A stretch of DNA of 16,761 nt, taken from the IMG/VR virus record IMGVR_UViG_3300029881_000057, one strand, 5' to 3'. The position numbers and the translations under genes are program-made. This document shows positions 10,792-16,761 of this stretch, one piece after another (positions within the stretch are counted from its first letter, which is position 1; each line of letters opens with the position of its first letter). The stretch is from a virus. Below the pieces are notes generated by a model, which saw only the letters and a program-made list of their open reading frames with translations, was not told the origin of the DNA and did not search any database.

Positions 10792-10805
10792 CTTTTAGGT
10801 ATCTT

Positions 10806-10903
10806 CTCATGTGTCCACCAATGAACGGGTAGGATAGCACACTTGAAACGATAGTGCCTACACCGCTTGTCGTTTTCGCTGAACGCTTTGTTTGGTACAT
10901 GAG
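10806..10903 (+). ncRNA. Structured RNA candidate in the ATPase 3' region (possible prohead-RNA analogue or 3'UTR-derived sRNA)
   Basis: There is no ORF on either strand. Long-range closing helix: CTCATGT (10806-12) pairs with ACATGAG (10897-903), and ACCAA (10817-21) pairs with TTGGT (10892-96), separated by a 4-nt GUCC bulge. An inner imperfect hairpin spans ~10828-10864 and its 13-nt loop carries CUUGAAAC. The element is bounded upstream by the 10759-10791 hairpin and downstream by the terminator. Confidence 0.4.
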
Positions 10904-10922
10904 TTAAAGATATAAATAGAAC

Positions 10923-10960
10923 AGCAGGGATACGAACTTAGTTCGCCCCTGCTTTTCTTA
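10923..10960. terminator. Bidirectional rho-independent terminator between the convergent ATPase (+) and polymerase-dUTPase (-) units
   Basis: AGCAGGG (10923-29) pairs with CCCTGCT (10947-53), with an inner CGAAC/GTTCG stem. It is followed by TTTTCTTATT on the plus strand and by GTTCTATTTAT on the minus strand. Confidence 0.75.
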
Positions 10961-14626: not shown

Positions 14627-14935
14627 TTATTCGTTGCCTGCTTCTTCGTCACTGTTTGCACCATTTCTAGGCGGAAGCACTTTTGCATACTGGATAAAAT
14701 CCTGCTCTGTCATTCCGTACAAAGTTTCAATTTCTTCTTTGTCTACAATGTGTACCGCTTTGAGTGTCTCAGTTTCAAGCAACGGACGAACTTTCTTCAT
14801 CAGTGCTTCATCGTCCTTGTATGTACGTGGTACTGTAACAACCTTGTTACAAGGTTCGCCTGCCTGTACGTCCAGACACATTACGTTTGCTTTTGTTGCT
14901 ACTATTGTTCTTGTTACCATAGGTACTCTTGCCAT
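14627..14935 (-). CDS. p6-like double-stranded DNA-binding (histone-like) protein, copy 2
   Basis: 102 aa with an acidic tail. MARVPMVTRTIVATKANVMCLDVQAGE... and LKAVHIVDKEEIETLYGMTEQDFIQYAKV resemble remembered phi29 p6 (MAKMMQREITKTTVNVAKMVMVDGEV...; VQVVSVEPNTEVYELPVEKFLEVATV). I moved the start to the ATG at 14935 (RBS AAAGGAGAA). The track extension to 14983 runs through a leader hairpin. Confidence 0.55.
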   Translation of the reverse strand: MARVPMVTRTIVATKANVMCLDVQAGEPCNKVVTVPRTYKDDEALMKKVRPLLETETLKAVHIVDKEEIETLYGMTEQDFIQYAKVLPPRNGANSDEEAGNE

Positions 14936-14976
14936 AATTTTGTTCTCCTTTCTGGCTTTGGTTTGTTTATAGTTTA

Positions 14977-14992
14977 GGTACATTATTGTACC
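14977..14992 (-). other. Leader stem-loop A (GGUACA-AUAA-UGUACC)
   Basis: A 6-bp stem with a 4-nt AUAA loop. It lies 2 nt downstream of tRNA-like element A and 42 nt upstream of the copy-2 p6-like start codon. Confidence 0.6.
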
Positions 14993-14994
14993 AG

Positions 14995-15090
14995 TGGACG
15001 GTATAGGATTTGAACCTATAATCTAGTGCTGACCAGACAAATGTTATAACACATTGTCACTAGGCAACTTGCCAATTGTTGCACCGTCCA
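14995..15090 (-). ncRNA. tRNA-like element A (near full-length, non-canonical anticodon arm)
   Basis: On the minus strand: acceptor TGGACGG (15090-15084) pairs with CCGTCCA (15001-14995). U8-G9 follow. The D-arm is CAAC-AATTGGCAA-GTTG. The T-arm is TATAGG-TTCAAAT-CCTATA and abuts the acceptor 3' strand. The central arm is an over-long interrupted helix (CTAGTG/CACTAG plus GACAATGT/ACATTTGTC) capped by a 7-nt loop GUUAUAA. No CCA is encoded. Total length is 96 nt. Confidence 0.6.
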
Positions 15091-15165
15091 GAGGGGTGAG
15101 GGTGTACTGTTAAATGAGTACACCACTCTGGCAACGTAACTGTTATTTATCTTTGGTACTATTTT

Positions 15166-15194
15166 ATTGTAGCATATTGTACTCGAAAAGTCAA
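15166..15194 (-). promoter_or_regulatory. Internal sigma-A-type promoter upstream of tRNA-like element A and p6-like copy 2
   Basis: The minus strand reads TTGACT (15194-15189), a 17-nt spacer, then TGCTACAAT (TACAAT at 15171-15166). The predicted start near 15158 gives a leader of roughly 220 nt. Confidence 0.7.
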
Positions 15195-15504: not shown

Positions 15505-15567
15505 GTGTACATTTGTACACTAAAGGGTGTATAGTGTCGAAACTATAATCGTGCCTGTCACGCACCC
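15505..15567 (-). ncRNA. Structured leader element C (degenerate tRNA-like three-way structure plus stem-loop)
   Basis: On the minus strand, GGGTG (15567-63) pairs with CACCC (15529-25) and encloses two hairpins: CGTG-ACAGG-CACG and TATAGT-TTCGAC-ACTATA, the second abutting the 3' strand. Four nt downstream lies hairpin GTGTACA-AA-TGTACAC (15520-15505). The RBS and the ATG at 15456 follow. Confidence 0.45.
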
Positions 15568-15633
15568 TAGTTTTGGTACTTTCGTGAAATTTTTAACAAT
15601 GATTTAATTTTTAGATTTCATTTTAGCTTCTTT

Positions 15634-16163: not shown

Positions 16164-16208
16164 TGGTAGGATAGGGTTTGAACCTATCCACGCACCGACT
16201 GCCTACCA
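16164..16208 (-). ncRNA. tRNA-like element B (acceptor/T-arm top-half minihelix)
   Basis: On the minus strand: TGGTAGG (16208-02), a 14-nt linker CAGTCGGTGCGTGG, the T-arm ATAGG-TTCAAAC-CCTAT, then CCTACCA (16170-64). This gives a 7-bp acceptor stem and a 5-bp T-stem with a 7-nt loop in exact tRNA geometry, with no D or anticodon arms. The T-arm matches element A at 17 of 18 nt. The 5' strand overlaps the TGG-TAG end of the upstream CDS. Confidence 0.6.
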
Positions 16209-16740: not shown

Positions 16741-16761
16741 GTTTGAAGTTAAAGGGGCAAA
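16741..16761. repeat. Right inverted terminal repeat (21 bp)
   Basis: GTTTGAAGTTAAAGGGGCAAA is the exact reverse complement of nt 1-21. Confidence 0.95.

Follow-up and report, generated by a model that had tools for sequence, protein, structure and literature searches.

In E. coli, the tRNAs of thrU-tyrU-glyT-thrT-tufB are co-transcribed with an mRNA and are removed from it by RNase P and 3' processing. Non-decoding tRNA-like modules that recruit RNase P and RNase Z for end formation are known from MALAT1/MEN-beta (mascRNA) and from the TMER units of gammaherpesvirus 68. The valine-accepting tRNA-like structures of tymoviruses are 3'-terminal, end in CC(A), and have a pseudoknotted acceptor together with an anticodon mimic. 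In plant mitochondria, the t-elements are degenerate tRNA-like folds at whose borders RNase Z/P cuts produce 5' and 3' ends of mRNAs: a degenerate cloverleaf in the cox1 leader directs the RNase Z cut that makes the mRNA 5' end, and the t-elements at nad6 and ccmC extend across reading-frame ends (PMC1920247). Among phi29-like phages, some metagenomic genomes of 'cluster 06', the cluster of CS229P1, were reported to have predicted tRNAs (PMC11476376). In our full-text literature searches, no paper describing tRNA-like elements for phi29-like phages or the Picovirinae came up.

The element analysed in this study (element A; minus strand, 14995-15089, delimited by its fold, its relatives and alignment with tRNA-Val) resembles the plant t-elements in being a degenerate tRNA-like fold with an intact GGUUCRANYCC T-arm in an mRNA leader, the plant elements occurring in leaders and trailers, and the overlap with a reading-frame end recurs in module B, described below. 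Plant t-elements are organellar and cleavage-mapped, whereas element A is phage-borne, with predicted cleavage sites; further, its site differs from them in having an obligatory hairpin right after the discriminator and a cassette-like turnover. Like thrU-tyrU-glyT-thrT-tufB, the locus has a promoter, then a tRNA or tRNA-like unit, then the gene of a very abundant protein, but the E. coli tRNAs are functional, while most lineages of element A are without decoding and have kept the processing determinants. The mascRNA and TMER modules differ in being eukaryotic and serving 3'-end formation or miRNA release, with no homology to element A. The tymovirus structures share with it the property of a viral tRNA-Val mimic; however, a viral 3' tRNA-like structure was rejected as an identity for element A, which lies within a 5' leader, has CUG in place of CCA behind it, and lacks an anticodon loop. 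The predicted tRNAs of cluster 06 belong to the same clade, in which relatives score as tRNA at the element A site; they receive a passing mention, with no description of degenerate forms, of a coupling to a hairpin or of the fixed place that the elements occupy in the p6 leader (PMC11476376).

The window, that is, the whole stretch of 16,761 bp that was analysed, is the complete linear genome of a phi29-like phage with the same 21-nt inverted terminal repeat (TTTGCCCCTTTAACTTCAAAC) at 1-21 and 16741-16761, and the phage is a small human-gut phage. The minus strand carries, in order, two paralogous dsDNA-binding proteins of the p6 type (phrog_6370), a phi29-type SSB (PF17427), a terminal-protein-sized ORF, a protein-primed PolB and a dUTPase; the plus strand carries a gp16-type packaging ATPase (PF05894). 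The closest database record is MT835814, a human-faecal contig without annotation (90% identity), and the closest cultured relatives are the Clostridium symbiosum phages CS229P1-3 (PolB 64%). At the early end (16655-16500), a consensus promoter TTGACA-17-TATACT is present as a tandem duplicate, each copy followed on its 3' side by about 35 nt of identical leader.

The tRNA-like pieces that an earlier note had described on the minus strand between 15090 and 14995 were all present. The acceptor GGACGGU/ACCGUCC (15089-15083/15002-14996; from sequence, relatives and RNAalifold) has 7 bp as that note stated, but the uridine it took as position 1 is N-1: in the register given by the relatives and by bacterial tRNA-Val, G1 is 15089, the discriminator A73 is 14995, and U15090 can pair with A73 to give the supposed eighth pair. 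There is no U8, because the single nucleotide G15082 (G8) connects the acceptor and the D-stem, in place of the two connector nucleotides (8, 9) of a canonical tRNA. The D-arm consists of a 4-5-bp stem (CAAC/GUUG, 15081-15078/15068-15065) and the loop AAUUGGCAA with GG (15077-15069). The T-arm AUAGG-UUCAAAU-CCUAU (15019-15003) has the loop previously reported, with a stem of 5 bp instead of 6; the sixth pair is lost in relative L013 and impossible in the L009 type. Compared with canonical tRNA (Rfam RF00005), the 7-bp acceptor stem, the 5-bp T-stem and a UUCRANY loop are all present in this half. The core fold may nevertheless deviate from that of a tRNA, since the connector between acceptor and D-stem is 1 nt long and the variable region, AUU between the 'anticodon' stem and the T-arm, is 3 nt long.

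In the anticodon domain, the earlier note had drawn an interrupted helix of 17-19 bp, and we found instead a 5-bp 'anticodon' stem CUAGU/ACUAG (15063-15059/15027-15023) that closes 31 nt without a 7-nt loop. These 31 nt are a lineage-specific 23-nt hairpin inserted at the place of the anticodon loop (15036-15058; supported by covariation), followed by 8 unpaired nt, UGGUCAGC (15028-15035; from the alignment of near relatives and RNAalifold). The inserted hairpin, GACAA-U-GUGU, loop UAUA, ACAU-UUGUC, has 9 bp (5 bp + 4 bp) and one bulged U, and it is missing or different in other cassette types. Its apical loop is not kept among close relatives (UAUA, UACA, UCCA, UCUA, UUAA and ACAAA occur), so the UAU 'anticodon' read from this loop is without support. 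That the anticodon domain is the dispensable, fast-changing part of the element had been missed.

The fold is supported by several measures. Element A alone has a folding z of -2.7, and unguided RNAalifold on 14 homologous leaders returned the cloverleaf together with two upstream stem-loops and a downstream hairpin (14992-14977). Within its own subtype (14 distinct sequences), 97% of cells are paired, and substitutions are compensated both in the acceptor (GC to AU) and at pairs 34-56 (GC/AU) and 41-50 (UA/CG) of the inserted hairpin. A minimum-free-energy alternative, the hairpin UCUGGU-CAGC-ACUAGA, was rejected; it is broken in relatives L013 and L017, in which the cloverleaf pairing is kept.

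With respect to identity, the earlier view that the element is a mimic and not a decoding tRNA holds: ARAGORN found neither a tRNA gene nor a tmRNA in element A, and the Rfam search matched its T-arm alone, at 15.1 bits against a threshold of 29. When the 23-nt hairpin was removed in silico, ARAGORN called a tRNA in the same register as the relatives give. Under relaxed settings, ARAGORN produced forced and mutually inconsistent class II tRNA, intron and anticodon readings, which were discarded. An intron-containing tRNA, which would have either a group I core in an intron of >=200 nt or a bulge-helix-bulge motif at 37/38, was rejected, since the insertion lies directly 3' of the 5' strand of the stem and not at 37/38 and Rfam gave no intron match; with only 23 nt, the insertion is not a group I intron. 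The tRNA-like domain of a tmRNA was likewise rejected, position 3:70 being A-U and not G3:U70, with no CCA and no ARAGORN tmRNA call.

The ancestral tRNA that the earlier note proposed to look for was found. The 21-nt string of T-arm plus acceptor, GGTTCRARTCCTATACCGTCC, is present in 65 bacterial genomes, and the loci sampled were tRNA-Val in 10 of 10 cases (nine GAC, one CAC), including Faecalibacterium, Oscillibacter, Oscillospiraceae and Anaerovoracaceae. In the alignment with bacterial tRNA-Val(GAC), both acceptor strands, the T-stem, A73 and C74 are identical, while the D-stem, the anticodon arm and the variable region are replaced, and the genomic CCA has become CUG, in agreement with the earlier observation that no CCA is encoded after the discriminator. 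Because of this identity to tRNA-Val(GAC) genes in acceptor, T-stem, A73 and C74, element A is a remodelled tRNA-Val, the remnant of a valine tRNA.

The leader in which element A lies, all on the minus strand, was placed by the earlier note behind an internal promoter, and this placement stands: the sigma-70-type promoter TTGACT-17-TACAAT with a TG extension (15166-15194), kept in relatives, drives the leader, and no terminator was found between it and the p6-like gene. Downstream of the promoter follow stem-loop SL1 (GUACC...GUUAC, 15136-15159; RNAalifold, with a CG to UA change at pair 11-26), the conserved single-stranded box UGCCA (15129-15133), stem-loop SL2 (GAG-U-GGUGUACU / AGUACACC-CUC, 15098-15128; 5 of 11 pairs changed on both sides, 97% of cells paired), and a C-rich, G-free single-stranded tail, ACCCCUCU (15090-15097), ending at the N-1 uridine. 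All four are conserved across cassette types. The GGUGUACU/AGUACACC hairpin had been noted before at 15100-15125 and was recovered at 15124-15101 by unguided RNAalifold. On the other side of element A, the SL3 hairpin GGUACA-AUAA-UGUACC (14977-14992) begins 2 nt past the discriminator, with 4 of 6 pairs changed on both sides in near relatives, and is followed by a Shine-Dalgarno (SD) sequence AAAGGAG (14951-14945) and the gene of a p6-like dsDNA-binding protein (phrog_6370; 102 aa; 14627-14951 including the SD). The start given for this gene by the ORF finder, ATG 14983, sits within SL3 without an SD, and relatives have AUCG there; the true start is ATG 14935, behind AAAGGAG.

Base-pairing alternatives within the leader did not hold. 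The proposed switch, in which CCAGAGUGG would compete for the acceptor 3' strand (CCACUGG), has lost its 3' partner in L018, L024 and L032, relatives whose acceptor ends and trailers differ (CUACUUAG and similar), where the 5' box stays. A role of the C-rich tail as an anti-Shine-Dalgarno was rejected, its duplex with the SD region being weaker than that of shuffled tails (mean z +0.47), and the pairing of a UUGCCA box with the SD, drawn by RNAalifold, was no better than shuffles over 31 leader types, a median of 0.64 of the shuffles doing at least as well.

Relatives were collected by a PolB-anchored scan, which gave 80 related IMG/VR genomes (72-100% PolB identity), and were examined with a scanner that demands a T-arm with an xTCxAxx loop and a perfect 7-bp acceptor within 135 nt. 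The scanner matched 121 times on the coding strand versus 23 times on the opposite strand, and for 67 distinct matches a p6-like start codon (MAR..M.TRT) follows at 47-97 nt, or at 58-62 nt in near relatives. A strict tRNA-like element precedes 78 of the 124 distinct p6-like genes, versus 3.9% in a control with the acceptor 3' strand shuffled; this count begins from the p6-like upstream regions and is thus not circular. By inspection, most of the remaining upstream regions contain relaxed versions. These counts, together with the folding z and the compensatory changes, bear out the earlier statement that the fold is beyond chance. The strict scan gave no such element in MT835904, Hungatella phage CH17P1 or phi29, which are phi29-like phages at a greater distance.

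Between the promoter and the p6-like gene of the 80 relatives, the positional homologues are all tRNA-like and occur in three forms: a canonical 73-nt tRNA, deviant elements of 79-118 nt, and minihelices of 44-57 nt made of acceptor, short linker and T-arm. Seven element types exceed the Rfam tRNA threshold, with 38-67.5 bits, the deviant ones of 79-118 nt reaching 38-51 bits. The highest score belongs to the canonical 73-nt tRNA in L059 (577-649), which has the loop CUUAUAA, is called Ile-UAU by ARAGORN, precedes a p6-like gene, and may represent the cassette in an intact and possibly working condition; the anticodon labels that ARAGORN gives to some of the elements are inconsistent. In the cultured Clostridium phage CS229P2 (L082), a 54-nt acceptor/T-arm element (1916-1969; UCCCGGA...GAGGGG UUCGACU CCCCUC UCCGGGA) lies, unannotated, upstream of the p6-like gene 10.

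The constant features across cassettes are the 12-bp stack of acceptor and T-arm and the T-loop (GGUUCRANYCC), with the GG of the D-loop in the larger forms. Among 43 distinct cores, both-side changes are found in 7 of 7 acceptor and 4 of 5 T-stem pairs (11 of 12 in the stack); as the cores were chosen by pairing, it is their diversity alone that is informative. Flanked by sequences of 91-99% identity, the body may be anything from 44 to 118 nt long, and bodies cannot be aligned, for example between the window and L007 or L009. RNAalifold on MAFFT alignments over all cassette types gave no structure, and near-relative subsets were used instead because these alignments were too poor. The element A site behaves as a cassette with a hypervariable body. 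The cassettes of 116-118 nt have conserved internal motifs in common. In 50 of 51 distinct cases, a minimum-energy hairpin starts 0-2 nt past the discriminator, whereas random windows show no such preference; the start codon is then reached within about 50-70 nt. In L027 (about 1746-2094) and also in L029, the order is a large tRNA-like element, a p6-like start that is truncated (ATGCCAAGAGCACCC...), a second tRNA-like remnant in degenerate form and the real p6 gene, an arrangement that looks like the scar of a cassette insertion or duplication.

The genome holds three tRNA-like modules in all, element A and the modules B and C, the latter two also on the minus strand. Module B (16164-16208) is a 45-nt minihelix of acceptor and T-arm, UGGUAGG...AUAGG UUCAAAC CCUAU CCUACCA, followed by a hairpin at about 16162-16142 and the p6-like paralog starting at ATG 16110. 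The final two codons of the upstream 97/111-aa ORF, the sense codon UGG and the stop UAG (16205-16203), lie within the module, and an RNase P cut at the 5' end of the module would strip the stop codon from the upstream mRNA. Module C (15524-15568) consists of a 6-bp acceptor (AGGGUG/CACCCU), a hairpin CGUG-N5-CACG and a 6-bp T-like arm with the loop UUCGAC, again giving a 12-bp stack, with 6 of 16 pairs changed on both sides; a hairpin at 15520-15505 follows, and then an 82-aa gene starting at ATG 15456.

We give about an even chance to the most likely reading, that element A is a t-element derived from tRNA-Val(GAC), cut by RNase P and/or RNase Z so that a stable p6 mRNA with a hairpin cap is left. 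In its favour are the identity to tRNA-Val(GAC) genes, the tRNA-like homologues at the same position in 80 relatives, the constant stack and T-loop beside a body of changing length, the covarying hairpin past the discriminator, the constrained distance to the ATG, the lack of a terminator between promoter and gene, and the module of the same kind in CS229P2. The acceptor/T-arm part of a tRNA is what RNase P and RNase Z measure and bind, acceptor/T minihelices suffice as their substrates, and the anticodon domain is irrelevant to both. In the proposed mechanism, the promoter at 15194-15166 would transcribe element A within the p6 mRNA leader; the decoding part would have been lost, and the acceptor/T-arm stack and the D/T elbow kept as recognition features for the host RNase P and RNase Z. 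RNase P would cut between U15090 and G15089, the predicted site, and a cut after A14995 would be made by RNase Z and/or by RNase P alone. The RNase Z of the Firmicute B. subtilis is blocked by CCA, and the loss of CCA, now CUG, would permit its action here. The 5' end of the p6 mRNA would then lie 0-2 nt before SL3. The closeness of the hairpin to N73 (0-2 nt) and the loss of CCA give these predicted cuts indirect support. Bacterial mRNAs are stabilised by 5'-terminal stem-loops with at most a few unpaired nucleotides, and phi29 needs p6 in very large amounts; the 5'-terminal stem-loop may thus shield the p6 message from 5'-end-dependent decay and give stable, high p6 expression. Modules B and C would have an equal role for their downstream genes and would also part those genes from the upstream cistrons, and the anticodon domain, being dispensable, would have been filled in this lineage by the 23-nt hairpin. 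For relatives with a canonical tRNA at this position, cutting by RNase P and RNase Z is what one would expect by default.

Several observations fit this t-element model less well. For element A itself, the separation of cistrons needs no cleavage, since it has its own promoter about 70 nt upstream. The leader parts SL1, UGCCA box, SL2 and C-rich tail have no role in the model. Lying so close to the discriminator, the hairpin there could be an obstacle to RNase Z and not an aid. The short connector and variable region, with a core fold that may deviate from that of a tRNA, also count against the model. From the covariation of the inserted hairpin and the motifs shared by cassettes of 116-118 nt, the body would seem to be more than filler in some cases, and diversifying selection, with a trans-acting RNA as its object, could be what drives the turnover of cassettes while their flanks stay near-identical. 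It is because of the own promoter, the roleless leader, the body covariation and the cassette turnover that explanations by a trans-acting decoy, an uncut element and a pseudogene stay alive.

An unlikely alternative is that the excised RNA of about 95 nt is itself the product, a tRNA-Val mimic acting in trans. The mimic would titrate, or mislead, a host factor that recognises tRNA by its acceptor/T-arm half; candidates are defence nucleases, toxins, aminoacyl-tRNA synthetases and enzymes that modify tRNA or add CCA. The turnover would then be an arms race. This alternative would account for an acceptor and T-stem that are exactly host-like, for the hypervariable body between conserved flanks, for the covarying inserted arm and for the conserved motifs inside the longest cassettes. 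However, defences directed at tRNA usually target the anticodon loop, which is lost or variable here, some close relatives have only a minihelix of 50-52 nt at the site, and the tight coupling to a hairpin and a start codon points to action in cis; further, no single partner is implied, because the discriminator and acceptor sequences differ between types.

Also improbable in our estimate is the explanation that element A is a structural part of the leader that acts in cis and is uncut by tRNA enzymes, as a compact fold blocking 5'-to-3' decay, a ribosome standby site or insulator, or a protein operator for p6 translation. The leader is indeed a chain of covarying structures (SL1, SL2, cloverleaf and SL3), with a fixed spacing to the SD. 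For such roles any stable hairpin would do, yet the GGUUCRANYCC T-loop and the 12-bp stack are kept across unrelated cassettes; some relatives have canonical tRNAs there, for which processing would be the default, and the sequestration of the SD by leader segments is no better than in shuffled controls.

We consider it rather unlikely, too, that the p6 leader is a hot-swappable cassette which repeatedly captures host-like tRNAs, with a remodelled, non-decoding and stable small RNA, excised by the host RNase P and RNase Z, acting in trans. In this reading its target would be a tRNA-binding host factor or defence system, and the diversity of cassettes among near-identical phages would record an arms race, besides any cis role in the maturation of the p6 mRNA.

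That element A is a decaying pseudogene of a phage tRNA-Val without present function is less probable again. The element does fail the tRNA detectors, its anticodon domain is disrupted, and its body differs widely among relatives, but compensatory substitutions hold the acceptor and the hairpin paired, the element is kept at the site throughout the clade, down to PolB identities of 64-72%, and each genome has three modules with a like downstream architecture.

A prohead (packaging) RNA is very improbable. This identity was considered since the phage has a gp16-type ATPase, Rfam finds no pRNA, and element A has a 5'/3' helix with a multi-helix junction; against it, the Rfam model of the phi29 prohead RNA (RF00044) gave no match even at E<=10, the body is not conserved even where the ATPase context is nearly identical, and the three modules amount to several copies per genome. 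A better candidate is a separate 115-nt RNA directly after the ATPase gene. This conserved non-coding RNA lies on the plus strand at 10799-10913, before a terminator at about 10925-10958, has a folding z of -4.07, and gave nhmmer matches in 75 related loci. RNAalifold on 20 diverse relatives gave 44 pairs, 23 with compensatory changes, in a fold that combines a long bulged 5'/3' helix with two hairpins and a three-way junction. The sequence of an internal loop, UAGC, complements that of a hairpin loop, GCUG; in L076/L033 both loops have changed (AUGC/GCGU). The RNA had no match to the Rfam pRNA and is a candidate prohead RNA. According to a 2024 review, pRNA is known only from Bacillus phi29-like phages (PMC11476376).

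That element A still decodes, as a functional tRNA containing an intron or some unusual insertion, is hardly credible: ARAGORN calls one once the hairpin is removed or an intron is forced, and L059 has a canonical tRNA at the site, but element A lacks a 7-nt anticodon loop, its apical loop varies in near-identical phages, the 23-nt insertion is neither group I nor at 37/38, the score is below the Rfam threshold, and the connector of 1 nt and the variable region of 1-3 nt stand against it.

Element A as a tRNA-derived processing element is of an already known kind, and a new principle would follow only if the trans-acting reading were true; its interest lies in the conservation, the graded degenerate series, the cassette behaviour and the availability of a cultured host-phage pair. 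A cultured system is at hand in Clostridium symbiosum and its phages CS229P1-3. If the t-element model is true, compact and portable RNA parts, a tRNA-like cutter with a 5' hairpin, could be obtained for gene expression in Clostridia. Cleavage, if true, would also explain the erratic calls of tRNA finders and the inconsistent anticodons in gut phi29-like genomes (PMC11476376). The natural series from an intact tRNA to a 44-nt minihelix shows which tRNA features survive selection for processing alone. Further, these elements would, if cleaved, be the first conserved tRNA-derived processing modules described, in the literature searched, as organising early phage mRNAs, and they would provide a phage counterpart to mitochondrial tRNA punctuation and t-elements.
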